Origin: a bacterium | GTDB lineage: Bacteria; Pseudomonadota; Alphaproteobacteria; Rs-D84; CACZYB01 | Assembly (NCBI GenBank): GCA_014803575.1 | Contig: JAAVBO010000022.1 | Span: 4,138-68,137, forward strand | DNA length: 64,000 nucleotides | Direction of reading: 5' to 3' | Shown: in pieces, positions 16,980-34,158 of the stretch | Numbering within the stretch: position 1 is the first letter of the stretch | Layout of the letters: each line of letters opens with the position of its first letter | Made by a program: the position numbers and the translations under genes | The notes under the pieces: model-generated | Databases searched by the model: none | What the model was told of the DNA's origin: nothing | Seen by the model: only the letters and a program-made list of their open reading frames with translations

Positions 16980-17009
16980 TTGACTTTTTATAAAAAATAG
17001 TGTATAGTA
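16980..17009 (+). promoter_or_regulatory. sigma70-like promoter (TTGACT-18-TATAGT)
   Basis: Seen in sequence upstream of 17181 ORF. Confidence 0.4.
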
Positions 17010-17180
17010 GTTTTCAACTAATGGGATAAGTATACCCATTTTTTTTATAATCTGTAATCTTCATTTTTCTGTGAAGATTTTTTTATTGAGATTTTGTGAT
17101 GAATATTTGAATGGCTATCTTTTTTTAGATAGCTTATGAAATTTCCATATTTGTTATGGAATTCTAATGGAGGATAGTTT

Positions 17181-17621: not shown

Positions 17622-17647
17622 TAAAATAATTTGAAAGGGATTTTAGA

Positions 17648-18388: not shown

Positions 18389-18480
18389 AATTTTTTAATA
18401 CTTTTTTGATATTTTTTATTGAAGTATGCTTTTGAATGTGATATACTGAAATTGTCTTTTGTTAAATAGGAGAGAGAAAT

Positions 18481-18813
18481 ATGTTTAAAAGTATAATTAA
18501 AAAAGCTAAACCTGCTTCTAAAAAAGTTGAAGCAAAAAAGGCTCCTGCTAAAAAAGCAGTACCAGCTAAAAAAGTTGCAGTTAAAAAAACTACAACAACA
18601 ACTGCTAAAAAAGTTGTTGCAAAGAAACCTGTTGTAGCAAAGAAAGTAACTGTAAAAAAGGCTCCTGCTAAAAAAGTAGCACCAGCTAAAAAAGTTGCAG
18701 TTAAAAAAGCACCTGCTAAAAAAGTAGTTGTTAAAAAGGCTGCTGTAAAAACTGCTTCTGTAAAAAAATCAGTTAAACCAGTTGCAAAAAAAAAAGTAGC
18801 AAAAAAGAAGTAG
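18481..18813 (+). CDS. histone H1-like lysine/alanine-rich DNA-binding protein
   Basis: Tandem AKKAxPAKKVAVKK repeats; antisense ORF 18462..18914 is an artefact of the same repeats. Confidence 0.8.
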   Translation: MFKSIIKKAKPASKKVEAKKAPAKKAVPAKKVAVKKTTTTTAKKVVAKKPVVAKKVTVKKAPAKKVAPAKKVAVKKAPAKKVVVKKAAVKTASVKKSVKPVAKKKVAKKK

Positions 18814-18824
18814 TTGATATTTCT

Positions 18825-19382
18825 TTGATGGTATCTAATCCCAATAAAAAGGGTAATGAGGTTAAGAAAAAAACTTCGTTTATCTCTTCTTTGTTGGGAT
18901 TTTTTTATAACCATACAAAAAAAATATTGTCAGTTTATCTTGCTCTTGTCGTTGTATTTTCTTTCGCATTTGCTTTCATAAGAGAGTTGGATGTTTATAA
19001 GCAAATAAGATTTTCAACTAATCCTGTGGAAATTATGTTTATTTCTATTGCATATTCCATATTTGATATTATCAAATATTTTGTGCCGGTTCTTATTATT
19101 GCTTTGATTGTAAAGTATATTATGATGAAGGCGAGAAAGATAAAATTAAAATTTGTTTTTAAAAGAAGTTTCAAAAGACAAACAATGATTGCGTTTACAA
19201 TTTCATTTGTTTTTGCAATTATATTTTATTTTGATGTTTTATTGGTGACCAATTATTCTCGTCAATTAGTAGAATCATCATTAGAGTTATTTATTTTGTT
19301 CTTTTTATCTGTATTATTTACATTGTCTTCAATGTATGGTTTGTTAAAGGGAATTTCTCCTGTATTTGAACAAAAAAAATAA
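18825..19382 (+). CDS. membrane protein, hypothetical
   Basis: 4 TM segments. Confidence 0.45.
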   Translation: MMVSNPNKKGNEVKKKTSFISSLLGFFYNHTKKILSVYLALVVVFSFAFAFIRELDVYKQIRFSTNPVEIMFISIAYSIFDIIKYFVPVLIIALIVKYIMMKARKIKLKFVFKRSFKRQTMIAFTISFVFAIIFYFDVLLVTNYSRQLVESSLELFILFFLSVLFTLSSMYGLLKGISPVFEQKK

Positions 19383-19556
19383 TAAAATTAATTTTAATTA
19401 TACTTTGTAAGATTTAAAATCCGCCGGTTTGTGCGGATTTTTAATTTTGCAAATAATATGCAGATAAAGTTTCGGGATAACATTTCTTTATGCCCCGTTT
19501 GGGTGTGCCTTTATTTTAAAGGCATTTTTTTAATTTAAAAAAAAGGAGATATAAAT

Positions 19557-20393
19557 ATGTCAATTTCTATTGATCAATCTTTTATAAAACAGTTTGAAGC
19601 CGAAGTGCATCTTGCTTTTCAACAAACAGGAACAAAACTTCGTTCTACTGTCAGAACAAAAAATGATGTAAGAGGTAGTTCTACAACTTTCCAAAAAGTA
19701 GGTAAGGGAACTGCTACAACAAAAGCAAGACACGGTCTTGTGCCAGTTATGAATTTGGATCATACACCTGTTGAATGTGTATTATCAGATTACTATGCCG
19801 GTGATTGGGTTGATGAGTTAGACGAGCTTAAAACAAATGTTGATGAAAGACGTGTTGTTGCATCTGCCGGTGCGTATGCATTGGGTCGTAAAAGTGATGA
19901 GCTTATTATTTCAGAACTTAATCTTGCTTCACAATCTGTTGAAATGGGAACAACCGGTCTTACAAAGGCGAAAATCCTTTCTGCTTTGGAAATACTTAAT
20001 AATAATGATGTGCCAGATGATGGTCAAAGATTTGCTGTTGTCGGTGTGCATCAATGGAATGAACTTTTAAATATGAAAGAATTCTCAAATGCTGATTATG
20101 TCGGTGATTCTTATCCTTTATTAAACGGAACGGAATCAAGAAAATGGCTTGGTATTAATTGGATTATGCATAATGCTTTGCCTTTTGATGAAGATAATTC
20201 TTCAAGAGCTTGTTTTATCTATCACAAAAATGCAATAGGTCATGCATCAGGTTGTGATGTTAAAACTGATATTACATGGCATGGTGAAAGAGCTGCGCAC
20301 TTTATTTCTAATTGTATGAGTCAAGGTGCAAAGCTTATTGATAACAGCGGTATTGTTAAAATTATGTGTAAAGATACTTCTGTGATTGGTTAA
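19557..20393 (+). CDS. T7-like (gp10-like) major capsid protein
   Basis: FQKVGKG...VPVMNLDHTPVE...DERRVVASAGAYALGRKSDELIISELN resembles T7 gp10 FPVLGRTQAAYLAPGENLDD...DVRSEYTSQLGESLAMAADGAVLAEIAGL (from memory); strong RBS aaaaaggagat. Confidence 0.75.
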   Translation: MSISIDQSFIKQFEAEVHLAFQQTGTKLRSTVRTKNDVRGSSTTFQKVGKGTATTKARHGLVPVMNLDHTPVECVLSDYYAGDWVDELDELKTNVDERRVVASAGAYALGRKSDELIISELNLASQSVEMGTTGLTKAKILSALEILNNNDVPDDGQRFAVVGVHQWNELLNMKEFSNADYVGDSYPLLNGTESRKWLGINWIMHNALPFDEDNSSRACFIYHKNAIGHASGCDVKTDITWHGERAAHFISNCMSQGAKLIDNSGIVKIMCKDTSVIG

Positions 20394-20419
20394 TAATAAA
20401 CAAAAAAAAGGAAATAAAA

Positions 20420-20674
20420 ATGTCAATGGATTCAAAAAATTTATCAGTTCTTGCTTATTCTAACGGTTTTACTTTGTGGCATTATAAAACAGATGATGCG
20501 AAAACTGTTGTCGGAGCAAGCGGATATTTCAATAAAGTGTCGAATATATTTAATGTAGGAGATGTTATTTTTGCATCTCTTGGAAATACCTCAAAAGAAA
20601 TGGTAATGTATACAGTTTCTTCTGTGGAAAGTGGTGTTGTTAGTGTGTCTGATGTAATGCCAACAAGTGTTTAA
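20420..20674 (+). CDS. small phage-module protein, hypothetical
   Basis: Sits between capsid and tail tubular A; own RBS and terminator. Confidence 0.4.
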   Translation: MSMDSKNLSVLAYSNGFTLWHYKTDDAKTVVGASGYFNKVSNIFNVGDVIFASLGNTSKEMVMYTVSSVESGVVSVSDVMPTSV

Positions 20675-20694
20675 TTTTAGTAATTTGGAATAAA

Positions 20695-20723
20695 ATCCCT
20701 GTTTTCGGACGGGGATTTTTTTA
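20695..20723 (+). terminator. Rho-independent terminator
   Basis: ccctgttttcggacggg hairpin + T7. Confidence 0.5.
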
Positions 20724-20733
20724 TGGGAGAAAT

Positions 20734-21297
20734 TTGATGAATAATTTTACAATGGTGGATTTGTGTTCTAAGGCTTTGAATAAAATAGGAGCAAGTGAAA
20801 TAGTTTCTTTTGACGAAGGAACACCAGAGGCGGAATTTTCAAGAAGTATATATCCTGTATTAAAGCATAAGTTATTATCATCATTTCCATGGAGTTTTGC
20901 AACGGAAATTAAAAGGCTTAATAAGATTGTTATTGAAGATGTGGAAGCAGAATTTTCTAATTGTTATTTGCTTCCGTCTGATTTTATAAGGGCAGTGAAA
21001 ATTTCATCAAAACTTCCATATAAGATTATTGGGGATAAATTATTTACCGATGCGACAGGTGTTATACTTACTTATATATCTGATGTTGATGAATGTAGGT
21101 TTTCATCTGCTTTTGTATCGGCATTTATTTATGCTATTGCAGCAGAATTATCGGTTTCGCTTTTGGATGATGTGACTAAATTTAATTTATTATACCGACT
21201 TTATACTTCTGAATTAAGGGAAGCAAGATTTTTAGACAGTATGCAGGAAAGTCCAAAAAAGTTTAATGACTTTTCTTTGATTGATGTGAGGTTTTAA
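20734..21297 (+). CDS. T7 gp11-like tail tubular protein A
   Basis: Size (187 aa), position after capsid, N-terminal ...KALNKIGASEIVSFDEG...WSF... resembles gp11 ...NDILASIGEPPVSTLEGD...WTF. Confidence 0.65.
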   Translation: MMNNFTMVDLCSKALNKIGASEIVSFDEGTPEAEFSRSIYPVLKHKLLSSFPWSFATEIKRLNKIVIEDVEAEFSNCYLLPSDFIRAVKISSKLPYKIIGDKLFTDATGVILTYISDVDECRFSSAFVSAFIYAIAAELSVSLLDDVTKFNLLYRLYTSELREARFLDSMQESPKKFNDFSLIDVRF

Positions 21298-21304
21298 GAG
21301 AGGA

Positions 21305-23218
21305 GTGAATATGTATAAACAAGTGATTTCTAATACTAACTTTTCCTATGGTGAAATTTCCCCTTATTTATTTGGAAGAGGAGATATTGAGGCATATAAA
21401 TCCGGAGCAATGACTATTTCGAATATGACAGTTATTCCTACCGGCGGAATAAAAAGAAGAGATGGAACTAAGTTTATATCTCAGTTGTCGGGTGTAGGAA
21501 AATTGTTGGTTTTTGAATATTCTTCGGACAAAGTATTTCTTTTGTGTTTTACTGATAAAATATTGTATATTTATGATAGCGATAATAATTTGGTCGCATC
21601 TTTGTATTCTCCGTTTAGTTTGGAACAACTTTCTAATATAAGATGGTCACAGAAAGGTAATCTTCTTTTTATTGTGCATAAGGATATTTTTCCTAAGATT
21701 TTAAAATATATTCCGTCTGGCAATATTTGGAAGTTTGAAGATTGGGTGTTTGATAAAAATCCGGAAACCGGAGCTTCGTATCAGCCGTTTGCAAAATTTG
21801 ATGATACAGAAGAAATTTCTCTTACTCCATCAAATTTGACCGGAGAGATAGAGTTGGAAGCTTCGGACGAATTTTTTGATGTTTCTTATGTCGGAACAAA
21901 AATTAAAATAAATGGTGGTGAAGTTTTGATTACAGAGTTTATTTCTTTTGTGAAAGTTAAGGCTTTGGTTATTATTGAATTAGAAGGTACGGAAGCTTCT
22001 TATTTTTGGCAAGAACAGGCATTTTCTTGCAGGCGAGGTTATCCTAAAACTATTACATTTCATCAAAACAGATTGGTTATAGGGGCATCAAAATCTTTAC
22101 CTAATAGATTGTGGTTTTCCAAAACTGGAAATTATTTTAATTTTGATTTAGGTGAAGGTCTTGATGATGAAGCGATAGAGTTTGATATGTTATCGGATAA
22201 AGTTAATGAAATTGTTTGTGTGTTTTCAGGACGGCATTTGCAGGTTTTTACATCTGATTCCGAATGGATGGTTTCCGGATTGCCTTTGACACCATCATCA
22301 TTATCCGTAAAACAACAAACAAAAATCGGTTCTGTTTCGGATAGATTTATCTCTCCTAAATTAATAGAAGGTTCAACTGTATTTGTTGCAAAAAATAATA
22401 AGGAAATCAGAGAATTTTTCTATGGTGATATTACTGAAAATTATTCATCCGAAGATTTGATTTTACTTTCTAACCATTTGATGAATAAACCGAAAGAATT
22501 GGATTATGATATTAAAAAAAGATTGCTTTATGTTTTACAAAGTGACGGAACTGTTTCTGTTTTACTTTTGAATAAAACAAGTGGTATTAATGCTTGGTTT
22601 AAATATGAAACTTGCGGAGAATTTATTTCTTTGTGTGTATTTTTAAATAATTTATATGTTATTGTAAAACGTGAAAATGACTATTTTTTAGAAGTATTTA
22701 CGGAAGATATTTTTACTGATAGTTCGTTGGTATTTAAATCTAAAAATAAAACAAATAAAATAGTTGGAATTTCCCATTTGAATAATAAAGTTGTCAGTGT
22801 TAATGCCGATAATTATGTTTTTGATGTAAAAGTTTTAAATGGGGAAATTAATTTACCGATTGAGGCGGAAAATATTTTTATCGGACTTCCTTATACACAT
22901 ATTTTGTGTCCGTTACCATTTTTGATAGGTGGTGTTAGGGCGCCTAAGGTTGTTAGGTTGTTTGATTTGTCTTTTCGTGTTATGGATACACCTTTATTGC
23001 AAATAGATACCGGTGATGGTTTAAGAAATATTACCTGTCGTAATTTTGACAGGGAAGATAATATTGATAATCCAATAAAAATTTTTAGCGGGGATGTTCA
23101 TATAAAGGCAAAAGGTTTGTTAAGAAATTTTAATGTTCCGTTATGGAAACTTCAAAGTTCAAAACCTTATAATGTTAATATTTTAAATGTTTCTGCTACT
23201 GTTGGTAGCGTAAAATAA
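21305..23218 (+). CDS. T7 gp12-like tail tubular protein B
   Basis: QNRLVIGASKSLPNRLWFSKTGNYFNFDLGEGLDDEAIEF ~ T7 gp12 FRNRLGFLSGENIILSRTAKYFNFYPASIANLSDDDPIDV; follows gp11-like gene. Confidence 0.75.
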   Translation: MNMYKQVISNTNFSYGEISPYLFGRGDIEAYKSGAMTISNMTVIPTGGIKRRDGTKFISQLSGVGKLLVFEYSSDKVFLLCFTDKILYIYDSDNNLVASLYSPFSLEQLSNIRWSQKGNLLFIVHKDIFPKILKYIPSGNIWKFEDWVFDKNPETGASYQPFAKFDDTEEISLTPSNLTGEIELEASDEFFDVSYVGTKIKINGGEVLITEFISFVKVKALVIIELEGTEASYFWQEQAFSCRRGYPKTITFHQNRLVIGASKSLPNRLWFSKTGNYFNFDLGEGLDDEAIEFDMLSDKVNEIVCVFSGRHLQVFTSDSEWMVSGLPLTPSSLSVKQQTKIGSVSDRFISPKLIEGSTVFVAKNNKEIREFFYGDITENYSSEDLILLSNHLMNKPKELDYDIKKRLLYVLQSDGTVSVLLLNKTSGINAWFKYETCGEFISLCVFLNNLYVIVKRENDYFLEVFTEDIFTDSSLVFKSKNKTNKIVGISHLNNKVVSVNADNYVFDVKVLNGEINLPIEAENIFIGLPYTHILCPLPFLIGGVRAPKVVRLFDLSFRVMDTPLLQIDTGDGLRNITCRNFDREDNIDNPIKIFSGDVHIKAKGLLRNFNVPLWKLQSSKPYNVNILNVSATVGSVK

Positions 23219-23236
23219 TATTGAAAGGAGTTTTAA

Positions 23237-23707
23237 ATGGGTAATGTTGCTAATACTGTGAGTGCTGTGACATCGGCAGTTGGAGTTGTTGATAATATTG
23301 TTAGCTATAAAAACAATAAAGATAAACAAAAGGAAGAAAATAGAATATTAGAAGAAGAAAAGCGAATAAAAGAAGAGCAGATTGATGTAAAAAAACAACA
23401 ATATAAAGAAGAAAAAACAAATTTGTTGAAGGTGAAGCTTGCTTCTCAAAGGGCTAAATTGGGTGCTAACGGAATTAATGCAACTTCCGGCTCTTCTGTG
23501 GCATATCTTTCTAATTTAGAAAAGAATGTTGATGAAGAAATTGCAAAAAATGATTATTTCGCTGATTTGAATCTGCAAAATGAAAATAATATTTATAATT
23601 ATAAAAAGAAAGTTAATTTATTAAATTCATCAAAAAATAATTATAATGTTTTTTCTGATACTTTGAAGTCAACTACACAGCTTTTTTCTTCGTTATGGAA
23701 AATTTAA
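23237..23707 (+). CDS. coiled-coil phage-module protein (possible gp13-like internal/assembly protein)
   Basis: Position after gp12-like gene, size 156 aa, charged coiled-coil; no motif-level match. Confidence 0.3.
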   Translation: MGNVANTVSAVTSAVGVVDNIVSYKNNKDKQKEENRILEEEKRIKEEQIDVKKQQYKEEKTNLLKVKLASQRAKLGANGINATSGSSVAYLSNLEKNVDEEIAKNDYFADLNLQNENNIYNYKKKVNLLNSSKNNYNVFSDTLKSTTQLFSSLWKI

Positions 23708-23718
23708 AAGGGTAATTT

Positions 23719-24441
23719 ATGATGAATGATATTATTGAATATTCCTATATTTGTGATGGGAAACAAACTGTTTTTGAATATTTATTTGAAACTTTTTCTG
23801 TTCCATTTGTGAAAATTTATCTTGATGGAGAATTGATTGAAAAAGGTTTTACAGTTTATCCGTTTAATGATAAATGTGGTGGAAAGGTTGTGTTTGAATA
23901 TCCTCCATTAGCCGGTAAAAAATTAACTGTTTTAAGAGAATTGAATTTTTCCAGAGTTTGTGATTTTCAAACTGGCGGTGTTTTTAGGGCAGAGGATTTA
24001 AATTATGAAATGAATTATAATATTGCTTGTCTTAATCAGTTAGATAAAATATTGAAGAAATCTATAAAACTTTCCCGCTTTGATAACAAAGAAGTAAATC
24101 CTGTTTTGCCTCCGGCAAAGGCAGGTCATGCAATTGTATGGAACGAGAAGGGAAATGGATTTTCGAATTTAGATATTAATATAACCGAACAAGTAAACTT
24201 TGTTGAAGATTGCTTGAATTCGGTGGAAAATTTATATAATGATTTGACTGAGATTATTACAAACAGTCTTGATGTCGGTATTTTGGGACTTTTTCATAAT
24301 TTGTTGGGTCTTATCAGAGGATATCATCCCGATGCCTTTGAAGATTTTAAGTTAATTTCATCTGATTCGGATAAAATTTTTGATTATGGTTTGGTTAGTG
24401 ATACTCAAAACATTAATGTGAAAAATAATGGTAAATTGTAA
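23719..24441 (+). CDS. T7 gp17-like tail fibre, N-terminal adaptor domain only
   Basis: EYSYICDGKQTVFEYLFETFSVPFVKIYLDG ~ gp17 TYQLDGSNRDFNIPFEYLARKFVVVTLIG; FRAEDLNYEMN ~ LRAYDLNVAQI; 240 aa vs ~550 aa fibre, no distal domain. Confidence 0.55.
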   Translation: MMNDIIEYSYICDGKQTVFEYLFETFSVPFVKIYLDGELIEKGFTVYPFNDKCGGKVVFEYPPLAGKKLTVLRELNFSRVCDFQTGGVFRAEDLNYEMNYNIACLNQLDKILKKSIKLSRFDNKEVNPVLPPAKAGHAIVWNEKGNGFSNLDINITEQVNFVEDCLNSVENLYNDLTEIITNSLDVGILGLFHNLLGLIRGYHPDAFEDFKLISSDSDKIFDYGLVSDTQNINVKNNGKL

Positions 24442-25042
24442 AAAAAATACAAAAGTCAGTTTTTTAGAATTTTTGAAAATATGGTGTGATGTGCAAGGTA
24501 TTTCTTTGCCTTTGCACCATAAAAAAATTGCTCAGTGGTTGGAAGAGATTTTTTATTCTGATAAAAAAAAGGGGTTGTTATTAGCGTTCAGAAGTAGTGG
24601 GAAGTCTACTGTCGTTGGACTTTTTTGTTCATGGCTTTTGTATATTAACCCGAATGTCAGGATTTTGGTTTTGGCGGCGGATACGGTGCTTGCAAAAAAA
24701 ATGGTGCGAAATATAAAAAGGATAGTGGAGATTCATCCTATGTTAGAGGATATTAAACCCAAGAAAAAGCAAGAGTGGGCTTCGGGAAGTTTTACTGTGG
24801 AGCGAGATTTGGCACTTCGTGATCCATCTGTGATGGCGGTTGGACTTCTTTGCAATTCGACTGGAAGCAGGGCAGATGTTATTATTTGCGATGATGTGGA
24901 GGTGCCGAAGAACTGTGATACTTATCAAAAACGGTGTGATTTGAGGGAAAAATTATTGGAGTTGAATTTTATTTTGGTGCCTAATGGAATGCAGATTTTT
25001 ATAGGGACACCACATACTTTTGATACCATTTACAAGGTTTAA
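24428..25042 (+). CDS. T7 gp19-like large terminase, N-terminal ATPase half (stand-alone ORF)
   Basis: Walker A LAFRSSGKST, GSRADVIICDDVEVP ~ T7 GSRADIIIADDVEIP, IGTPHTFDTIYKV ~ LGTPQTEMTLYK; stops immediately after this motif. Confidence 0.8.
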   Translation: MVNCKKNTKVSFLEFLKIWCDVQGISLPLHHKKIAQWLEEIFYSDKKKGLLLAFRSSGKSTVVGLFCSWLLYINPNVRILVLAADTVLAKKMVRNIKRIVEIHPMLEDIKPKKKQEWASGSFTVERDLALRDPSVMAVGLLCNSTGSRADVIICDDVEVPKNCDTYQKRCDLREKLLELNFILVPNGMQIFIGTPHTFDTIYKV

Positions 25043-25096: not shown

Positions 25097-25124
25097 TTGA
25101 CAAAGTAAAATATGTTTGTATAAT
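25097..25124 (+). promoter_or_regulatory. consensus sigma70 promoter (TTGACA-16-TATAAT) driving repeat array
   Basis: Perfect -35 and -10 hexamers seen in sequence. Confidence 0.6.
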
Positions 25125-25197
25125 GGAGGTAGTTTAGTTAGTTAAAAAAGAATTTGCCGGGACGACCCCTCATTTCGGCAAATCTGGTGAAAGCCAG

Positions 25198-25500
25198 TAA
25201 ATTCCCCTAAGTCATTCCCTCCTTATTTTCTCTCTCCTCGACTTAGGGGATAAATTTTTACCGAGAATTCCGAGTAATCTCACAAAGGCGAACTAAAATT
25301 TTCTACTAACCCCGTAGAAAATTAAGTTCTTGTTTGTTCGGTTTCTCTCTCCTCGACTTAGGGGATAAATTTTTACCGAGAATTCCGAGTATAGCAAACC
25401 AGATATCCTAAACTTCTCGCTAAAACCGCTCGTCGTTAAGGATAACTTCGTTTGCTATTCTCTCTTCTCGACTTAGGGGATAAATTTTTATTGATATTTC
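25198..25500 (+). repeat. tandem array: 48-nt direct repeat x3 (third degenerate) with 66-67-nt structured spacers
   Basis: tctctctcctcgacttaggggataaatttttaccgagaattccgagta at 25229-25276, 25344-25391, degenerate at 25459-~25494; first repeat closes an 11-bp stem with 25203-25213 around a CT-rich loop. Confidence 0.8.
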
Positions 25501-25555
25501 TATCTTTATTTAATATTATTTGTAATAATTTAATACAAATAAGAAAGGTGAAAAA

Positions 25556-26215
25556 ATGAAACTCAGCACAGTTGAAAAAATCTATATTATTGAATTTTTG
25601 GGTAGGTATGTTTTGCCTGAATATATGCCTCAAGATTTAAAAAAACAAAGAAGACTCATAACTATGCAGGATGATCTTTCCGGAATTATTAAAGAAAAAA
25701 CCAAAGATAAAAATGAAATAAAGAGAATGATAAAAACTTATATTGAAGACTCTTTACGCTTTTATGTTGAAAGTTTTAATATATCAATGGAAGAGGTGTA
25801 TAATATAGATATAGATGGTGTATTTCCTTCTACTGAAAAAAACATTGTATCAGTAGAAAAAAGTGATTTAGGCAGATATGAAGTTTCAAGACATTTTGGT
25901 GTTATAACAACTGATGAAATAAAGGCTACTTATATTGGTGGCGCAGGAAACTTTTTATATAATGGTAAAAGGGGTATTAGTATTCCAAATTATGTATTTG
26001 ATGATATTAAGGAAGGAAAGAATAATAAATATTTTAAACTATATAATACGGAAGTATATAATCCACCTTATTATAGTCAACATTATTTAGTTGAACCATA
26101 TCGTATACCAAATAATGGATATGTTGAGTTGCCGATAGAGCCTATTCCTTATGATAAAAATTTTGTTGATAGGGAAGTTAATTTAATTTATAAAGCTCGT
26201 GAAAATCAAAGATAG
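25556..26215 (+). CDS. hypothetical protein (219 aa)
   Basis: RBS aaggtg; no recognisable motif; own terminator. Confidence 0.5.
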   Translation: MKLSTVEKIYIIEFLGRYVLPEYMPQDLKKQRRLITMQDDLSGIIKEKTKDKNEIKRMIKTYIEDSLRFYVESFNISMEEVYNIDIDGVFPSTEKNIVSVEKSDLGRYEVSRHFGVITTDEIKATYIGGAGNFLYNGKRGISIPNYVFDDIKEGKNNKYFKLYNTEVYNPPYYSQHYLVEPYRIPNNGYVELPIEPIPYDKNFVDREVNLIYKARENQR

Positions 26216-26221
26216 TAAAAT

Positions 26222-26246
26222 TCCCCTTGGTTTTAGGGGATTTTTT
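26222..26246 (+). terminator. Rho-independent terminator
   Basis: tcccc-ttggtttt-agggga hairpin + T6. Confidence 0.6.
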
Positions 26247-26575
26247 ATGGGAGATTAATTTTTTTGATTTTTTATTTGAAATTTTTGTTTTAAATTGCTA
26301 AAAATAAAACTGTATTTTAAAAGATTTGCGAATCGGTTTAATTTTTTTATAAAAAAGAATCGATTCTTTTGTGTTTTTTAAGATTTTATTGTTTAGACAA
26401 TCTAATTTTTAAAAAGAATCTTTAAAATTTTAATATGTTGTTTTTACAGCATTATTTTCTATTTTTGTGTACTTTAAAAGTTGTCAAAAAAAGAATCGCT
26501 TGACTTTTTTTGTCGAATGTTTTAAGAATCGTTGTATGAAGCGAATAGAAATTGTTTCTGTGAAACTTCAAACCT

Positions 26576-26818
26576 ATTCCCTGTTGCGTTCCTTTTCTCT
26601 CCTTTCCTCCTTCTCTCCTCGCAACGGGGAATTTTTTTGTGCTGATGGAATATTACGGACAGATAGCCTTCGTTAATGTCTAACTTACAGTTTTTTGGTG
26701 GAGATTTTGTGTCGGGTGGGCGTTGACCCAAACAAGCAATCCTAAGCTTCTCACTAATATCGTTCGTCGCTAAGGATAGCTGGGTTTGTGTTCTCCTCGC
26801 AACGGGGAATTTTTTTTG
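26576..26818 (+). repeat. paralogous structured-repeat array (two units) with long terminator-like hairpin
   Basis: 13-bp stem attccctgttgcg/cgcaacggggaat around 31-nt CT-rich loop + T7 (26576-26638); second unit 26732-26818 homologous to spacer-2/repeat-3 of first array. Confidence 0.75.
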
Positions 26819-27028
26819 TGCCTATGGGTATTGCTGACAGAGAGCTTTTAGATAGTAAAAATATTTATAAAGATTTATAAAAGTAGGTCCATATGTGCCC
26901 GCCCCAAGGGGGATAGACCAAAGAGTATCGGCTTTGATGACTGATGAAGGTGTGAAATTCAAAATAATCCTTGAAAGTTTTCTGTGTTTCAGTTTATACT
27001 TCAAAATATAAAAAACGAAAGGTCTATT

Positions 27029-27805
27029 ATGAATAATGTAAATGCGAATACCAATACTGAAAAAGAAGAAATTAAATATTTGACCCTTGATGATATAGAT
27101 AAAATGTATGAAGAGGCGGAACCTGCGGATTGGGGTTTCCCAGAGAACTATAGTGCTGTAGCTTCTAATAGATATCAAAATTTAACAACTTATGTAAAAC
27201 TTACTAAAATAGAGATAGAACGATTACCTGCTGATCATGCTAAGCTTCTTTTAGATTTTTATAATTTGTTTGATGAAAATGAACCTTATAAAGATAAGGA
27301 AGGTACTCCATATAGGGATAATTTATTAAATGATTTATATTATAATATATATGATGACGATTATGCACCTCTGTTTTCATCATCTAATGGAAAAAAAATC
27401 TATAGACACGATATTAAGTATGTAGAAAAGAACTGGAATAATCGTGTTGTAAAGGTTACTAAAATAGGAACAGAAGAAATACCAGTATTAGATAAAAATC
27501 AAAAGATAGAGAAATTGAAAAAATCCTTTGATATATTCAAAAGATTAAAAGAAAGGGATTTAGTTCTTGCCAGTATGTATGATAGAATAGTTAAGGAGGG
27601 GAGGGACTACTTGACATACCATGATTATCTTGGAAATTTTAATACACATTGTATGCTATTAGACGAAGGACGTTTACTTGATTATATAAGATATTTTTTT
27701 GCTAAAGCTAATTGGCGTGGTGCTTTATTTATACAGAACAAATTTCCAAATGTAAAAGTCACGGAAAATATGATGGCACAGTATTTGGAATATAAAGGAA
27801 GGTAA
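27029..27805 (+). CDS. hypothetical protein (258 aa)
   Basis: ATG 27029 with RBS gaaagg preferred over GTG 26984 of ORF track; no recognisable motif. Confidence 0.5.
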   Translation: MNNVNANTNTEKEEIKYLTLDDIDKMYEEAEPADWGFPENYSAVASNRYQNLTTYVKLTKIEIERLPADHAKLLLDFYNLFDENEPYKDKEGTPYRDNLLNDLYYNIYDDDYAPLFSSSNGKKIYRHDIKYVEKNWNNRVVKVTKIGTEEIPVLDKNQKIEKLKKSFDIFKRLKERDLVLASMYDRIVKEGRDYLTYHDYLGNFNTHCMLLDEGRLLDYIRYFFAKANWRGALFIQNKFPNVKVTENMMAQYLEYKGR

Positions 27806-27811
27806 TAAAAT

Positions 27812-27836
27812 CCCCTCTTTTGAGGGGTTGTTTTTT
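27812..27836 (+). terminator. Rho-independent terminator
   Basis: cccctc-tttt-gagggg hairpin + T-run. Confidence 0.55.
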
Positions 27837-27838
27837 AT

Positions 27839-28795
27839 ATGATATTTATGTATAATAATACTATGAATGAAGAGTATTTTAATATTGCCGGTTTTACAAA
27901 GTATCCAACGAATATATATAATTCGGAGCCGGAGAATGGTTATGCTCAAGGGGTGAATGAATGTAAGATTCCGGAGGCCTTGGTTTATTATGGCTTAGAT
28001 TCTGATACCCAATTTATGAAGTTATTTAATCCTGTATGGTATAGTGTTTTGAAGAGTTGTAAATTGCAGGCTGTTGTTTATAGTATATCAAATTATTTAT
28101 TTGATAACAGTCTTTCTCCTTTGTGGAATAAGTTTGAAAGAAATGTTGTTGATATGTTGCCGGCTGTGATAATTCTTTGCGGTTGGCAAAGGCATATTGA
28201 AAATATGAAAAAGAAAAAATTTGATATAACTCAGATTGAATTTAACAGGCAAGAGATACGAAATACTTTGACAAAGGGTATGCGAGTTTATGGGAAATCC
28301 GGTATGCTTATATCCGGAATGATATGGGCGAGTATATTATTGAATGCGAATCTTGTACAGTTAGGATGTTTACAATATGAAATAAAGAAAGCAAATAATC
28401 AATATGTGTGTGATGAAATATCTATTGGAGATATGATTGTTGCGATACATATTCCTGCCGGAGCTTTGTTTACTCCTGATGCAGTAGAGAAATCCATTAC
28501 AATGGCAAAGGAGTATTTTGGAGATAAGGTTTCGTTTATATGTAATTCTTGGTTATTGGGTGAACAGTTGGGTACTTGTCTAAAATCTGACAGTAATATT
28601 TTTAATTTTCGAAGGTATTTTAGTATAATTAAAACGGAAGATTCTGAATCTGTTTATAATTTTTTATTTAATAATGCGGATGATAATCCTAATATATCTG
28701 ATTTAGCGGAGGGAACATCTTTGCAAAAGTCAGTTAAAAAGGCTATGTTATCAGGTATTCATTTTTATGATGCGATTGGGATTTTGAAATGTTAA
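27839..28795 (+). CDS. hypothetical protein (318 aa)
   Basis: No recognisable motif; start uncertain. Confidence 0.45.
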   Translation: MIFMYNNTMNEEYFNIAGFTKYPTNIYNSEPENGYAQGVNECKIPEALVYYGLDSDTQFMKLFNPVWYSVLKSCKLQAVVYSISNYLFDNSLSPLWNKFERNVVDMLPAVIILCGWQRHIENMKKKKFDITQIEFNRQEIRNTLTKGMRVYGKSGMLISGMIWASILLNANLVQLGCLQYEIKKANNQYVCDEISIGDMIVAIHIPAGALFTPDAVEKSITMAKEYFGDKVSFICNSWLLGEQLGTCLKSDSNIFNFRRYFSIIKTEDSESVYNFLFNNADDNPNISDLAEGTSLQKSVKKAMLSGIHFYDAIGILKC

Positions 28796-28908: not shown

Positions 28909-28984
28909 GGCTAGGTAGCTCAGTCGGTAGAGCAAAGGACTGAAAATCCTTGTGTCGGCGGTTCGATTCCGCCCCTCGCCACCA
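28909..28984 (+). tRNA. tRNA-Phe (GAA)
   Basis: Cloverleaf by hand: anticodon loop cuGAAaa, T-arm ggcgg/ttcgatt/ccgcc, encoded CCA. Confidence 0.85.
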
Positions 28985-29020: not shown

Positions 29021-29246
29021 TTGTGTGTCGGCGGTTCGATTGTCCTCGGGCTTTGCCCTCGTTCGTCCCGTAAGGCTCAACTTCGGACTTTGTCCTCGTT
29101 TTGCCAACTATCGACTCGTCCTCGGGCTTTGCCCTCGTTCGTCCCGTAAGCTTAAAGCATCGCCTTTGGCTCGCGTTTAAGCAACTATCGACTCCCGCCC
29201 CTCGCCACCATAAAAGGTTGAACTCCCTATTTTGGGAGTTTTTTTA
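29021..29246 (+). other. second copy of tRNA-Phe 3' end (att-like direct repeat) split by a 153-bp GC-rich insert, followed by duplicated terminator
   Basis: gtgtcggcggttcgatt (29024-29041) ... ccgcccctcgccaccataaaagg (29195-29217) match the tRNA 3' end; insert 29042-29194 = two 76-nt units each starting with tcctcgggctttgccctcgttcgtcccgtaag and ending aactatcgactc. Confidence 0.7.
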
Positions 29247-29341
29247 TGTTTAAAGTTTTTTTTCTTAAAAATTTTCTTTATCTCTTAACATTTTGCTTTT
29301 TTTATGGTATAATGTCGGGGAATAAAGTAAGGAGAGATATT

Positions 29342-30958
29342 ATGATAGGAGAAGGAAACTTCGGCTATAATTCACAAAATGATGATGATATTCAAAATTT
29401 TATTCCACGAATCACCGTAATGGGAGTTGGTGGTGCCGGTTGTAATGCCGTGGGAAATATGATTTCTCAGGGTATTGACGGTGTTGATTTTGTTGTTGCA
29501 AATACAGATGCTCAGTCTTTGATGCAATCAAAAGCATCAAGGAAAATCCAACTTGGAAAGCAAACAACTCGCGGTTTTGGTGCCGGTTCTCGTCCGGAAG
29601 TAGGGCAAAGTGCGGCGGAAGAATCCTTAAATGAAATTACTGATGTTATTAAAAACTCTAATATATTATTTTTAACTGGCGGTATGGGTGGCGGAACTGG
29701 TAGTGGTGCTATGCCCGTGATTGCCTCGGTTGCAAAGGAAAAGGGGATTTTAACGGTTGCAATTATTACTACACCTTTTGATTTTGAAGGGGAAAAGAAA
29801 AAGCGTATTGCAAAAGAGGCTATTTCCAAACTTATCCCTAATGTGGATTGTGTAATAACACTTCCTAATCAGAATTTATTTAAGGTTGCGGATAAGCAAA
29901 TGTCGTTTATGAATGCCTTTAAGTTATCTGATAATGTCCTTTATGAAGGGGTTAGAAATATTACAGATTTAATTATGAAACCTGGACTTATTAACCTTGA
30001 TTTTGCCGATATAAGGGCGGTTATGGAAGGACAAGGTAAGACAATAATCGGGACTTCTGTTCAAAGTGGTGAAAATAGGGCTTTAAAGGCGGTGGAAGGT
30101 GCTCTTCTTAATCCTCTGCTTTCTAATGAAAGTATAAGTGGAGCAAAGGGTATTCTTGTAAATATTACCGGTAATGCGTCAAATCTTTCCTTGGAAGAAG
30201 TTGGGGAGATTATGAATACCATTAGAGCCGGAATAAATTCAGAAGATACGAATTTTGTATTTGGAACTTGCTTTGATGATTCTATGGGTGACAGTTTGAA
30301 AGTTGCAATTATTGCAACCGGAATTGATGGTGCAAACGTATCGCAAAAGCCGGTCCTCAGCAGTTTTGATAGTTTTACATCTGAGGTTGTAAAACCTACA
30401 CCTTATTCATTTGAGGAAGAAAAGAAAGTTGAAATTAAAATGGAAGAACCTGTTATCAAAGAAGATAATTTGAAAGTTAAACAGGAACCGATTGTAAATA
30501 CTGATAAACTTGATAGTTTTTTTGAAACCGGTGATGAAAAGGATATTCAAAGTTTTATTGATGAGGAAGCAGAAAAGCTTAACATTGCAAGTAATGTAAC
30601 AAATGAACTTTTTGCCGATAAATCAGATAAAATTTCATCTTCTGATGATGATGGTGATGATAATCCGGAACCACCAAAGGGAAAAAAGAAAAATCCTTTG
30701 TCATCATTTTTTGATATGATTGGAGAAAAAGGTAATGATGATACTTTCTTTGAAGATGTTGATTTGGGAAAGGATGATGATATTACTTTTAAGAAAGAAG
30801 AGCAAATTTCCGATAAAAAGGAAGAAGATAATGTCGTTTTTTTAGCAGGTAGTCTTGATACTAAAAATCAAGAGGATAAGCAAATTGATTTGATGGAAAT
30901 GATTAAAAAAATGGAGGAAACTTTGGAAATACCTGCAATATTTAAAAAAGGTTCTTAA
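29342..30958 (+). CDS. ftsZ: cell division GTPase FtsZ (long acidic C-terminal linker)
   Basis: GVGGAGCNAV, GGGTGSG tubulin signature; ATG 29342 with RBS aggagag preferred over ORF-track start 29246. Confidence 0.9.
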   Translation: MIGEGNFGYNSQNDDDIQNFIPRITVMGVGGAGCNAVGNMISQGIDGVDFVVANTDAQSLMQSKASRKIQLGKQTTRGFGAGSRPEVGQSAAEESLNEITDVIKNSNILFLTGGMGGGTGSGAMPVIASVAKEKGILTVAIITTPFDFEGEKKKRIAKEAISKLIPNVDCVITLPNQNLFKVADKQMSFMNAFKLSDNVLYEGVRNITDLIMKPGLINLDFADIRAVMEGQGKTIIGTSVQSGENRALKAVEGALLNPLLSNESISGAKGILVNITGNASNLSLEEVGEIMNTIRAGINSEDTNFVFGTCFDDSMGDSLKVAIIATGIDGANVSQKPVLSSFDSFTSEVVKPTPYSFEEEKKVEIKMEEPVIKEDNLKVKQEPIVNTDKLDSFFETGDEKDIQSFIDEEAEKLNIASNVTNELFADKSDKISSSDDDGDDNPEPPKGKKKNPLSSFFDMIGEKGNDDTFFEDVDLGKDDDITFKKEEQISDKKEEDNVVFLAGSLDTKNQEDKQIDLMEMIKKMEETLEIPAIFKKGS

Positions 30959-31033: not shown

Positions 31034-32530
31034 ATGATAGAAACAAATATTACAGATAAAAATATGATAGACGGTATTTACGAAAGGTATATTAATGCCT
31101 TGGAAAAACGTGCCGTTTGGGAAAATTATTGGGAGGAATGTTATGAATATGCTTTGCCACAAAAAAGCGGGATTTTCAAAAATGATAATGGCAGTGTGAA
31201 AAAAAATTCGACTGTTTTTGATTCAACTGCGGAATCTGCAGTAGACAGACTTGCCAGTAGTCTTCTTTCTCAACTTACACCGCCTTGGTCAAAATGGTTC
31301 GGGCTTGAATTTGGAATTGATATAAGTGATGATGAGGAAAGGTCGGAAAAGGTTCTTCAACTTGAAAATATTGAAAAAATTTTGCAATCGCATTTTGACA
31401 GGTCTAATTTTTATGTGGAGGCACATCAATGCTATCTTGATTTGATAACTGTCGGAACGGCGGTTATGTTATTTGAAGAAAATGCGGTCGGTGAAAATTC
31501 TGCGTTTAAATTTACGGCCGTGCCTATGAATGAAATTGTTTTTGAAGATAGCGGAAATGGAAAATTGGATAGTGTGTTTAGGCGTTCTAATGTTTCTCTT
31601 TCCAATTTGAAATCAAGGTTTGTAAATAGTGTTTTTGATGAAAGACAACAAGATATTATTTCAAAAAATTCTGATAAAAAAGTTTATGTGATTGAGGTGG
31701 TAGTTCCTCGTATTACCTCAACCGGACAACAAGGATATAATTACTTTGCGTTTGTGGATGATGTTGATGGAATATTTGGCAGTGATGAAAGAATTGTCCT
31801 TAAAACCGGAGTATTTGCAAATTCTCCGTTTATTTGTTTCAGATGGCAGAAGGTAAGTTCCGAAATATATGGAAGATCGCCCGTGATGAAGGCACTTCCC
31901 GATATTAAAACTGCAAACAAGGTTGTAGAGCTTATCCTTAAAAATGCGTCTATTGCGGTAAGCGGTATTTGGCAGGCGGATGATGACGGGATTCTAAATC
32001 CTCAGAATATTACTCTTGCCCCCGGAACTATTATACCAAAGGCAGTTGGATCTGCCGGACTTACACCTATCAGAAGCGGTGCTGATTTTGATGTGTCGCA
32101 ACTTGTTCTTTCTGATTTAAGGGCCAATATCAACAGGTGCTTATTGGTGGATCAATTGACTGCTTCGTCCGGTGGTAAAATGACTGCTACGGAAGTGATA
32201 GAGCGAATAAATCAGATATCCCGTATTTTGGGTGCGACTTATGGCAGATTGCAATCGGAGTTTTTGACTCCTGTCATTATTCGTGCGGTTAGCATTTTGA
32301 AGCGTCGCGGGGAAATTTCTGATATAATGGTGAATGGGTATGAAGTTGATTTGAAGTATCAATCTCCACTTGCGCAAAATCAGATAGTTCGCGATGCCGA
32401 AAATGTTTTAAATTGGATAAAAACTTTGGCTGAATTTGGTGAAGATGCAATGAGTATTATTGATAAAAAGGCTGTCGCATTATGGCTTGGTAAAGTTTTT
32501 GGTGTGTCTGAAAAATTGATTATATCTTAG
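31034..32530 (+). CDS. T7 gp8-like portal (head-to-tail connector) protein
   Basis: EIYGRSPV ~ T7 gp8 ESYGRSYI; GGKMTATEVIERINQISRILGATYGRLQSEFLTPV ~ GERVTAEEIRYVASELEDTLGGVYSILSQELQLPL (from memory). Confidence 0.75.
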   Translation: MIETNITDKNMIDGIYERYINALEKRAVWENYWEECYEYALPQKSGIFKNDNGSVKKNSTVFDSTAESAVDRLASSLLSQLTPPWSKWFGLEFGIDISDDEERSEKVLQLENIEKILQSHFDRSNFYVEAHQCYLDLITVGTAVMLFEENAVGENSAFKFTAVPMNEIVFEDSGNGKLDSVFRRSNVSLSNLKSRFVNSVFDERQQDIISKNSDKKVYVIEVVVPRITSTGQQGYNYFAFVDDVDGIFGSDERIVLKTGVFANSPFICFRWQKVSSEIYGRSPVMKALPDIKTANKVVELILKNASIAVSGIWQADDDGILNPQNITLAPGTIIPKAVGSAGLTPIRSGADFDVSQLVLSDLRANINRCLLVDQLTASSGGKMTATEVIERINQISRILGATYGRLQSEFLTPVIIRAVSILKRRGEISDIMVNGYEVDLKYQSPLAQNQIVRDAENVLNWIKTLAEFGEDAMSIIDKKAVALWLGKVFGVSEKLIIS

Positions 32531-32545
32531 TTTAAAGAGGTTATT

Positions 32546-33427
32546 ATGGAAGAAGATTTGAGTAAGCCTTTTTTGGTCGGGTTTGATGTCCTTAAAATAC
32601 CTGTGATTGAAAATGGAAAACCTACTTGGGAAGAAAAGTTTCCGATTCAAAAAATAGAGGAGCTTAAGGCACGAGTTGGAATTAAAAAATTTTCTTCCCA
32701 AATGATGTTGATGCCTATTGATACAAATAAGGGTAGGTTCGATGTAAAAAAATTAAAATTTTATTCATCAGAACTTCTTATGGAAGAAAGAAACAGGCTT
32801 CTTAATTTTTCAATTAATGGGAATAAGGTTGTAAGTTGTTCTTGTTGGTGGGATCCGTCCTATGGGTCAAGAGGTGGTGACGGAAGTGTAATTTCTGTTG
32901 TTTTTATTGATGAAGTGGGGCGATATTATCTTCATGATGTAAAGTATTTATATCATTCTGATGGGAATGCAGAGGAAATTCAGTCTGCGGTTGACCAATG
33001 TAGGCAAGTGGGCGAATTTTTGCGGGAAAATCATATACCTTCTGTGTATGTGGAAAGTAATGGCATAGGCAAATTTTTGCCGGGGTTTTTAAGAGGAGAG
33101 CTTTCAAAAATGGGGGTAAATGCTACTGTTATTGAAAAAACATCCAGAATTTCAAAGAATTTGAGGATTTTAGATGCGTTTGATGTGATTATTTCCGCTG
33201 GGTATCTTTTTGTGAATGAAAAGGTTAAAGATACGCCTTGGATTGCAGAATTTTGTGATTGGGGTGTGGATACAAAATCGCATGATGACGGGCTTGACAG
33301 TGTTGCGGGGGCTATTTCTTCGCAACCGGTCAGACTTCCTTTGACTTTGTTTTCCGGTTTAAAGGGCAGGTATAGTTTGGCCGGAAAAACCTTTAAAATA
33401 AAGACTAATTTTGATATAGATTTTTAA
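32546..33427 (+). CDS. T7 gp19-like large terminase, C-terminal nuclease half (stand-alone ORF)
   Basis: FSSQMMLMP ~ FTLQFMLNP; WWDPSYGSRGGDGSVISVV ~ VIDPSGRGKDETGYAVLYT; HDDGLDSVAGAIS ~ HDDRLDALALGIE; own RBS aagagg 15 bp after portal stop. Confidence 0.8.
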   Translation: MEEDLSKPFLVGFDVLKIPVIENGKPTWEEKFPIQKIEELKARVGIKKFSSQMMLMPIDTNKGRFDVKKLKFYSSELLMEERNRLLNFSINGNKVVSCSCWWDPSYGSRGGDGSVISVVFIDEVGRYYLHDVKYLYHSDGNAEEIQSAVDQCRQVGEFLRENHIPSVYVESNGIGKFLPGFLRGELSKMGVNATVIEKTSRISKNLRILDAFDVIISAGYLFVNEKVKDTPWIAEFCDWGVDTKSHDDGLDSVAGAISSQPVRLPLTLFSGLKGRYSLAGKTFKIKTNFDIDF

Positions 33428-33442
33428 ATCGACAAATAATTA

Positions 33443-33471
33443 TTGACAAATCATATTTTTAAGTTTATATT
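33443..33471 (+). promoter_or_regulatory. sigma70-like promoter (TTGACA-17-TATATT)
   Basis: Seen in sequence; shares 18-nt caaataattattgacaaa with promoter at 25087-25104. Confidence 0.45.
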
Positions 33472-33501
33472 ATAACTATATTTTAATAAAAGAGGTATGA
33501 T

Positions 33502-34158
33502 ATGAATATGGATAATAAAAAATATTATATTGTATTTACAGGATTATTTTTAATCTTTGTAGGTTTCTTTGTTTATTTTATCGATTCGTCTAAAAAGGTA
33601 GAAAATAAAACAGTTAGTTTGACAAAACCTGTTTCTTATTCTGTGGAAACCGTGAAAGTGGTGAAAGTTGTTCAGGCGGAAAAACCAAAGGGATTGCCTC
33701 TTAATTATGTGTATGAAATTCCTAATTTTGAAAGAAGTATACCTTATTATTTAGGAACAAAGAGATTTATTGAAGAATTGGATAATTTTCAAATTATTTG
33801 CAGTGGAAAAAATTGCAACAGGCAGATTTTGACCGGCAAAAATGCAACAACTTCTAACTGTAATAGAAAAAATAATGTTAAAATTAAGGTTGTCAGAGGT
33901 GATGTGACTTTTTCAAAGAATAATTTGAAATATCTTAAAAGTAATACAAAGATAGTTGGTGATTTATATATTCGTGATATAAATTTCCTTAAAATTCCGA
34001 AAAATTTTGCTGTGATTGGAAATGTTTATGTTATAAATTCCGATGGACTTACTTTTATGGGTAAAAATTTTATTGATGGTCATATTTTTGTGAAGGGTAA
34101 GAGCAGTATCAGGGCTCTTCCATACGATGTAAAATTAACTGGTCAAATATTTATTTAA
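33502..34158 (+). CDS. membrane-anchored hypothetical protein
   Basis: N-terminal TM; repetitive beta-rich C-terminus; no motif. Confidence 0.4.
   Translation: MNMDNKKYYIVFTGLFLIFVGFFVYFIDSSKKVENKTVSLTKPVSYSVETVKVVKVVQAEKPKGLPLNYVYEIPNFERSIPYYLGTKRFIEELDNFQIICSGKNCNRQILTGKNATTSNCNRKNNVKIKVVRGDVTFSKNNLKYLKSNTKIVGDLYIRDINFLKIPKNFAVIGNVYVINSDGLTFMGKNFIDGHIFVKGKSSIRALPYDVKLTGQIFI

Follow-up and report, generated by a model that had tools for sequence, protein, structure and literature searches.

We describe three open reading frames (ORFs) of 219, 258, and 318 amino acids (aa), here ORF1, ORF2, and ORF3, which lie on the plus strand between the two halves of a T7-type terminase gene (TerL) in a 64,000-nucleotide (nt) stretch of DNA, hereafter the window, from a metagenome-assembled genome (MAG) of an uncultured gut alphaproteobacterium. 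On balance, and with some reserve, we favor reading them as independent, lineage-restricted accessory cassettes that occupy a conserved host stretch between the halves of a domesticated T7-like structural cluster. The plus-strand gene order is TerL N-terminal half (TerL-N), repeat array A, ORF1, an AT-rich spacer, array B, ORF2, ORF3, tRNA-Phe, ftsZ, portal gene, and TerL C-terminal half (TerL-C), and the segment between the TerL halves, which also contains tRNA-Phe, ftsZ, and the portal gene, measures 7.5 kb. The loci of relatives are labeled L003 to L041; L003 to L007 are strains of the window's species, and L011 to L015 are five sister species (FtsZ, 56 to 75% identical). Independent assemblies show an identical layout of the ORF region, which rules out an assembly artifact. 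A reading made from the letters alone (the sequence-only reading) had taken the ORFs for motif-free cargo interrupting a phage module, with possible phage moron, defense, or toxin-antitoxin (TA) functions; what it observed is partly confirmed, and its interpretation is partly supported.

As we picture it, the cassettes would have been inserted into a mostly noncoding stretch comprising a small RNA (sRNA) array (sRNA-A), the AT-rich spacer, a second sRNA array (sRNA-B), tRNA-Phe, and ftsZ. The repeated sRNA terminator modules, together with the adjacent tRNA-Phe, may make this interval a hotspot for recombination and insertion. ORF1 and ORF2 would then be dispensable, fast-evolving cytoplasmic proteins with niche- or conflict-related roles rather than components of a particle.

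ORF1 and ORF2 as predicted autonomous cassettes

ORF1 (positions 25556 to 26215, plus strand) encodes 219 aa with an isoelectric point (pI) of 6.2, and ORF2 (27029 to 27805, plus strand) encodes 258 aa from an ATG, the mechanical ORF opening at a GTG at 26984, with a pI of 5.7. Sequence prediction makes all three proteins soluble and mildly acidic, with no hydrophobic segment and no signal peptide. They are annotated by NCBI as hypothetical proteins (HDR60_05355, HDR60_05360, and HDR60_05365), and their genes are slightly more AT rich than the neighboring ones. We rejected the idea that they are paralogues of one another or of other genes in the window, as no similarity was detected.

The frames are kept in sequence of only 27 to 32% GC, indels are in frame, and the ratio of nonsynonymous to synonymous divergence (dN/dS) lies below 1, which indicates that ORF1 to ORF3 are real genes and not chance ORFs. 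All six strain copies of ORF1 (6/6) encode 219 aa without a frameshift, and its dN/dS of 0.47, from 53 nonsynonymous and 25 synonymous changes, differs from neutrality (P = 0.006). For ORF2, seven homologues sharing 69 to 90% identity display in-frame indels throughout and retain long invariant blocks, with dN/dS values of 0.48 to 0.68.

Consensus scans place a promoter-like site, a Shine-Dalgarno sequence, and a terminator around each of these two genes. In the ORF1 cassette (25491 to 26246, plus strand), the promoter-like TTGATA-17-TATTAT lies at 25491 to 25519, the Shine-Dalgarno sequence is AAGGTG, and a terminator hairpin follows at 26222 to 26240. The ORF2 cassette (26960 to 27836, plus strand) likewise combines a promoter-like TTGAAA-18-TATACT (26971 to 27000), a Shine-Dalgarno sequence, and a terminator hairpin at 27812 to 27827. 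ORF1 and ORF2 would thus each constitute a predicted monocistronic, autonomous unit. The strong terminators that had been read after the ORFs are therefore borne out as hairpins for ORF1 and ORF2, while the scan found none after ORF3.

Neither ORF1 nor ORF2 has a match in Pfam (also at E ≤ 10), NCBIfam, PHROGs, PADLOC, or PDB in phmmer and profile searches, and neither has homologues in 50,697 phage records, in IMG/VR, or in a plasmid collection. Among 5.8 billion protein clusters, the ORF1 family comprises only two, from one species-level lineage, and the ORF2 family six, a handful of close relatives to which a profile search with the seven homologues added no members. For ORF1, the single weak match, to residues 98 to 170, is a 1,297-aa MBG-repeat protein (E = 1.2e-4; HMMER, 1.84 billion representatives); direct comparison with the MBG repeats (PF17883) gives an hhalign probability of 12.9% and no Pfam match at E ≤ 10. 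The most conserved block of ORF2 contains an invariant R65-x4-H70 in the homologue alignment. This Rx4H is reminiscent of HEPN RNases but would be a lead at most, as the pattern is expected by chance in about 1 protein in 4. AlphaFold2 models built from the shallow alignments were unusable (predicted local distance difference test [pLDDT], 39.9 for ORF1 and 37.6 for ORF2), and Foldseek returned nothing at E < 1 against PDB. The remote-homology and Foldseek checks proposed with the sequence-only reading accordingly gave neither a family nor a fold for these two proteins (pLDDT, 38 to 40).

Such orphans could also be young or decaying lineage-specific "junk" ORFs tolerated in a nonessential intergenic hotspot, an explanation that we consider unlikely. 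It would account for the confinement of ORF1 to one species-level lineage and of ORF2 to a few close relatives, their absence from the sister species, the lack of a confident AlphaFold fold, and dN/dS values of 0.47 to 0.68 against less than 0.1 in neighboring genes. However, frames of 219 to 271 aa remain open in every copy of this sequence, which is only 27 to 29% GC, with in-frame indels only, the dN/dS of ORF1 is significantly below 1, the invariant blocks of ORF2 persist across its homologues, and the promoter-like site, Shine-Dalgarno sequence, and terminator of ORF2 move with the cassette to new positions.

ORF3 matches the Dbv8/Orf11* acyltransferases

The statement that the ORFs lack recognizable motifs, valid for ORF1 and ORF2, fails for ORF3 (27839 to 28795, plus strand; 318 aa). 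Its residues 172 to 316 match Pfam GNAT_C (PF18164) over profile positions 1 to 142 of 142 with 110.3 bits (cutoff, 22.8; E = 9e-32). In PDB, residues 148 to 317 align to Dbv8 (4mfz, E = 3.2e-8), and the entries 4q36 and 4mfj (Orf11*/tcp24) and 6iix match at E values of 5e-4 to 3e-3. Searches of phage, viral-contig, and plasmid collections with ORF3 returned distant acyltransferases only; these include plasmid-borne proteins of Firmicutes/Actinobacteria named "acyltransferase domain-containing protein" (26 to 32% identity), one of which aligns from ORF3 residue 69. By these matches, ORF3 is a member of the Dbv8/Orf11* (GNAT_C) family of acyl coenzyme A (acyl-CoA) N-acyltransferases, and we infer that it would move an acyl group from acyl-CoA to an amino group on a small molecule, such as a sugar, or on an envelope component.

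The closest known relatives, Dbv8 and Orf11* of A40926 and teicoplanin biosynthesis, resemble ORF3 in their C-terminal GNAT-like domain, scored well above the Pfam cutoff, and in their length (338 to 345 aa against 318 aa). In contrast, ORF3 shares only approximately 25 to 32% identity with any characterized or plasmid-borne member and stands alone, outside a glycopeptide or any other biosynthetic cluster. In addition, Dbv8-type proteins carry a helical N-terminal domain before GNAT_C, whereas ORF3 has no recognizable match to it: residues 1 to 170 match nothing in Pfam even at E ≤ 10, and the PDB alignments begin at residue 148. Variation of ORF3 among strains is mild and confined to the start of the gene, with dN/dS values of 0.32 to 0.37. 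Translation may in fact begin at Met9 (27863), as it does in 310-aa variants.

Occupancy and variability of the gap

Homologues of ORF1 to ORF3 are absent from the homologous gap, and from the surrounding 10 kb, in all five sister species (5/5), which upholds the view of the sequence-only reading that these ORFs are lineage-specific cargo at a variable spot. The gap contains no protein gene in L011 and L012, secreted Ser-rich proteins in L013 to L015, and ORF1 to ORF3 in the window. The secreted proteins form a pair of 553 to 636 aa, with a Ser-rich N terminus, and 150 to 232 aa, respectively; the pair belongs to no Pfam family and is homologous among the three species (L013, 13106 to 15276; L014, 11629 to 13921; L015, 11471 to 14066). 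Also in L013, tRNA-Phe and sRNA-B are inverted.

Within the window's own species, the 19 kb around the ORFs differ by 0 to 3 mismatches per 200 nt in L003 to L007 (approximately 99% identical strains), against 31 to 36 per 200 nt in ORF1 and 7 to 19 in ORF2. ORF1 occurs as two haplotypes with 81% aa identity, plus mosaic recombinants among the strains, and its variability is concentrated in the N-terminal two-thirds rather than at the C-terminal tip. Its synonymous divergence (dS) of 0.23 is about tenfold that of the flanks (0.01 to 0.03), which points to import of alleles by recombination rather than to mutation alone. Targeted hypermutation of the kind seen with diversity-generating retroelements was rejected: synonymous divergence is raised just as much, the variants resolve into two separate haplotypes and mosaics of them, and none of the ORFs scanned looked like a reverse transcriptase. 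The local hypervariability of ORF1 and ORF2 would thus reflect exchange of alleles by homologous recombination.

The ORF2 cassette (approximately 26960 to 27810), from promoter-like site to terminator, recurs at other positions in L039, L040, L041, and L008. In L040 it takes the place that ORF1 has in the window, with array A on one side and the spacer on the other; in L039 it occupies slot 2, from array B to tRNA-Phe, directly before tRNA-Phe and without ORF3. L041 carries it with a different 5' neighbor, and in L008 the ORF2-like gene follows MltA at an unrelated locus. These positions suggest that cassettes are gained, lost, and swapped between slots. Short GC-rich, hairpin-forming segments, e.g., GTGCCCGCCCCAAGGGGGATAGACC...TATCGGCTTTGATGA, flank ORF2-type cassettes in this approximately 30% GC genome (window, 26880 to 26960; L039, 1157 to 1500; L040, 29 to 260). 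The segments of different loci are related to one another, but the window has no further copies of them; they may be remnants of an insertion mechanism or another small RNA.

The interval resembles tRNA-adjacent islets and hotspots in that it adjoins tRNA-Phe, differs in content from species to species, and shows presence/absence and positional polymorphism among strains. It differs from them in that the ORFs have no integrase, attachment-site duplication, or mobility genes and are located upstream of the tRNA gene rather than at the 3' end of it, and in that turnover here appears to use the repeated sRNA terminator modules. Integron-type cassettes were rejected as well, as no integrase or attC-like sites were recognized in a search that was not exhaustive. 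Phage morons were reportedly described by Juhala et al. in 2000 as autonomous promoter-ORF-terminator units inserted between prophage genes. ORF1 and ORF2 are like them in each having, by consensus scans, a promoter-like site and terminator of their own, and the ORFs are like them in lying between phage-derived genes, in being absent from close relatives, and in being slightly AT richer. However, the surrounding element is a vertically inherited cluster of structural genes only, together with host genes, and not a prophage; host genes for sRNAs and a tRNA immediately adjoin the ORFs; members of the ORF2 family are also found at nonphage loci; and ORF1 and ORF2 have no relatives among the phage records or viral contigs searched. 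The suggestion of a phage moron is hence not supported.

Several points weigh against reading ORF1 to ORF3 as accessory cassettes in a conserved host stretch. Neither an integrase nor a target-site duplication nor terminal repeats could be recognized, and the insertion mechanism is one that we infer. The promoters and terminators of the cassettes are consensus matches only. For ORF1 and ORF2, dN/dS values of 0.5 to 0.7 would also fit very weak constraint, and neither the AlphaFold2 models (pLDDT, 38 to 40) nor the blank Foldseek search points to a function. ORF3 lacks both a detectable N-terminal-domain match and its own terminator, and which codon starts it is uncertain.

A split terminase in a candidate domesticated T7-like cluster

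The two terminase halves named by the sequence-only reading are real. TerL-N (24428 to 25042, plus strand) is T7-type, matching NF033889 positions 1 to 189 of 500 (E = 2e-72) and phrog_38 positions 264 to 458 of 760; it contains Walker A, Walker B, and GTPHT motifs and ends in ...TIYKV before the stop. TerL-C (32546 to 33427, plus strand) starts with MEEDLSKPFLVGFDVLKIP... and matches NF033889 positions 232 to 500 of 500. The split is exact: where the intact protein reads ...GTPHTKETIYN-TNNDGFLKGFQTFRLPILNEKG..., TerL-N ends in ...GTPHTFDTIYKV followed by its stop and TerL-C begins with MEEDLSKPFLVGFDVLKIPVIENGK, continuing the intact sequence exactly when compared with the 487-aa TerL of L017. 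The position of the TerL-N stop is identical in L011 to L015.

In the window, the T7-like cluster extends over 15705 to 24441, 24428 to 25042, and 31034 to 34158. Upstream of the gap (17648 to 24441) lie T7-like scaffold, capsid, tubular-tail, nozzle, internal-virion, and fiber-adaptor genes, and the T7-type portal gene (head-tail connector; 31034 to 32530, plus strand; PF12236, E = 8e-123) directly precedes TerL-C. Between tRNA-Phe and the portal gene stands ftsZ (29246 to 30958, plus strand; TIGR00065, E = 1e-104; Pfam Tubulin and FtsZ_C), whose product has a long, alphaproteobacterial-type linker. No replication, lysogeny, or RNA polymerase genes flank the cluster, the flanks consisting of RecJ, MltB, MipZ (E = 5e-91), and similar host proteins. 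MipZ and the long-linker FtsZ identify the organism as an alphaproteobacterium.

A search with TerL-N, taking one genome per species, recovered 30 loci, all from MAGs and 25 of them titled Alphaproteobacteria; at least 30 gut alphaproteobacterial species conserve the structural cluster. The distant relatives L017 to L038 display the canonical order of portal, scaffold, capsid, tail, and a single intact TerL, whereas L011 to L015 and the window share a rearranged order of fiber, TerL-N, gap, ftsZ, portal, and TerL-C. Across the six-species synteny, genes of the cluster have dN/dS values of 0.08 to 0.34 with dS above 0.5. Values for both TerL halves, portal, and capsid are 0.08 to 0.2, with dS from approximately 0.5 (capsid) to more than 1, TerL-N alone standing at approximately 0.1 and TerL-C at 0.12 to 0.2 across species. 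The shared order, the purifying selection, and the host flanks together argue that the "interruption" is an old, selected arrangement rather than a recent insertion of cargo. The ORFs do lie between the TerL halves, as had been read, but the segment in which they lie would be a conserved host stretch and not an insertion into a phage, and the whole is probably an anciently rearranged, domesticated T7-like structural cluster that holds this stretch.

In the more distant MAG L016 (9971 to 12047), a TerL-N of 208 aa is cut off where that of the window ends, and the portal gene comes next with no intervening host DNA; TerL-C was not found within 10 kb. On this arrangement, the junction of TerL-N and portal may predate the insertion of the sRNA-tRNA-ftsZ stretch.

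The cluster is a candidate podovirus-type gene transfer agent (GTA) or other domesticated particle. Like GTAs such as RcGTA, it consists of head, tail, and packaging genes only and is vertically inherited under purifying selection across alphaproteobacterial genera. Unlike RcGTA, it is T7-like (podovirus) rather than HK97/siphovirus-like, and its terminase is divided into two genes, separated by 7.5 kb that include ftsZ and the portal gene. In the literature searched, we found no description of such a split-terminase T7-like cluster. A T7-like cluster with a two-gene terminase and an embedded ftsZ, tRNA-Phe, and two sRNAs is a more notable object than the ORFs, which matter little by themselves, being one distant acyltransferase and two orphans of a single uncultured lineage. 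If the cluster makes particles, it would represent a new type of domesticated phage element.

With such a cluster on either side, the ORFs might be accessory proteins of the T7-like particle, involved in receptor binding, decoration, or host range, with hypervariability as the mark of diversifying selection on targeting. ORF1 lies just downstream of a fiber-adaptor-like gene and TerL-N, ORF1 and ORF2 are the most variable genes in an approximately 99% identical background, the likeness of ORF1 residues 98 to 170 to an MBG-repeat protein would suit such a role, and all three lack a signal peptide, as virion proteins would. We nevertheless regard this explanation as quite unlikely. L011 and L012 keep the same cluster without any ORF here, sRNA genes with three terminators separate the ORFs from the structural genes, ORF2-like genes occur at unrelated chromosomal sites (L008 and L041), and PHROGs and the phage databases hold no homologues of ORF1 or ORF2. 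Moreover, the MBG likeness is weak in the profile comparisons given above, and ORF1 varies in its N-terminal two-thirds, not at the C-terminal tip.

A bolder combination has, in our view, only a slim chance of being correct: ORF1 and ORF2, as swappable cassettes of the same slot, could form a new conflict or host-range module tied to a domesticated T7-like particle, i.e., a podovirus-type GTA with a two-gene terminase. In one version ORF2 would be an Rx4H (HEPN-like) nuclease, and in another ORF1 would be an MBG-like adhesion protein that sets the specificity of particle or cell.

The arrays as predicted small RNA genes

The structured repeats that the sequence-only reading placed before the first two ORFs do precede both, yet they appear to be independent sRNA genes and not leaders of ORF1 and ORF2, because L011 and L012 carry both arrays without a protein gene in the gap. 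The gene for sRNA-A (25097 to 25259, plus strand) comprises a promoter, a pair of hairpins, and a terminator hairpin whose CU-rich loop is invariant. Its promoter, TTGACA-16-TATAAT at 25097 to 25124, matches the consensus at 12 of 12 positions, and in the consensus fold the terminator stem covaries across species (CCCCTAAGTC, CCCTTAAGTC, and CCCCAAGTC) around the invariant loop. Two extra units follow (25260 to 25490, plus strand), each with a different hairpin and then a shared CU-rich/terminator module, TCTCCTCGACTTAGGGGA and a T-run; homologous extra units are present in L011, L012, and L014. As repeat family D1, array A contains three 50-nt copies spaced 115 nt apart from 25227. The shared array motif has six matches against 0.02 expected.

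The gene for sRNA-B and one extra hairpin/terminator unit occupy 26500 to 26820 (plus strand), with a promoter at 26500 to 26529 and copies at 26614 and 26792, 178 nt apart. The CU-rich loop of its terminator hairpin spans 31 nt and is the same in each species that has it, and the copy number of the extra hairpin/terminator unit varies among the window, L003, L005, and L007. Both sRNA units and tRNA-Phe (GAA; 28909 to 28984, plus strand) are contained in the gap between TerL-N and ftsZ in all six species (6/6), and no species of the clade lacks tRNA-Phe here. Rfam holds no family matching the arrays or sRNAs. The CU-rich loops of both sRNAs are anti-Shine-Dalgarno-like, and the two sRNAs are functionally reminiscent of the alphaproteobacterial CCUCCUCCC-loop sRNAs (CcsR/cuckoo). 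The picture that emerges replaces the initial one: the arrays would be conserved CU-rich sRNA genes, the interruption an ancient selected arrangement, and the ORFs markers of a recombination hotspot.

The layout also recalls type III TA systems (ToxIN, CptIN, and TenpIN), in which repeats of approximately 34 to 45 nt (about 36 nt) lie immediately upstream of the toxin gene with a single terminator between. Shared with these are the promoter-proximal tandem RNA repeats and the terminator before an ORF of approximately 200 to 260 aa. The units in the window are, however, 3 to 5 times longer (115 to 178 nt) and each ends in a terminator of its own, a conserved sRNA with a separate promoter makes up the first unit, and arrays and ORFs occur independently of each other. 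Arrays without ORFs (L011 and L012) and ORF2-like genes without an upstream array (L008 and L041) argue against the two forming one functional unit, and the arrays of the sister species in particular argue against the type III reading. ORF1 and ORF2 show no ToxN, AbiQ, CptN, or TenpN homology in the Pfam, PADLOC, and PDB searches, structural comparison being precluded by pLDDT values below 40. The layout departs from the definition of a type III system on three counts: the size of the units, their independent promoters and terminators, and array and gene that do not strictly co-occur. We rejected an ORF2/ORF3 TA pair because the two genes are separated by a terminator and because ORF2-like genes are found where ORF3 is missing.

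With respect to defense, PADLOC-DB 2.0 gave no match for ORF1 to ORF3 at E ≤ 0.1, and the gap cargo of the sister species gave none except JetC/LmuB on a coiled-coil secreted protein of L014, which we regard as noise; the association with defense islands that had been envisaged thus finds no support. Altogether, although the ToxIN-like layout is joined by a variable hotspot beside a tRNA gene, fast-evolving orphan genes, and the R65-x4-H70 of ORF2, a type III system with the arrays, a GNAT toxin (ORF3) paired with ORF2, or a single-gene defense is highly improbable, given the findings above on arrays, repeat units, ORF2 family, and intervening terminator, the absence of PADLOC, Pfam, and PDB matches for ORF1 and ORF2, sister-species cargo without defense signatures, and the placement of ORF3 in the Dbv8/Orf11* biosynthetic family rather than among small TacT/AtaT-type toxins.

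Spacer, tRNA-Phe duplicate, and a neighboring gene

The AT-rich spacer between the ORF1 cassette and sRNA-B (26247 to 26499) is conserved in sequence in L011, L012, L014, L015, and L040. The region upstream of sRNA-B (26240 to 26540) holds the densest occurrence of GANTC, the CcrM-type methylation site, in the 64-kb window, with 6 sites per 300 nt against a mean of 0.63. This cluster includes the palindrome GAATCGATTC, and the spacer lies near ftsZ and mipZ.

Downstream of tRNA-Phe, a duplicate of its 3' half (29024 to 29247, plus strand; repeat families D2, D3, and D13) is followed by its own terminator and carries a 153-nt insert of 33-nt repeats that interrupts it at the T-loop position. 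The duplicate is present as three tandem copies in L011 (11775 to 12085) and is missing from L012, and L007 shows an 85-nt indel. It could be a relic of an attachment site, a tRNA-derived RNA, or a small mobile insert.

Finally, the gene that adjoins the T7-like cluster on its upstream side, in the opposite orientation (14121 to 15632, minus strand), encodes a 503-aa protein with a LysM domain and a subthreshold match to Ntox44 (bacterial toxin 44).

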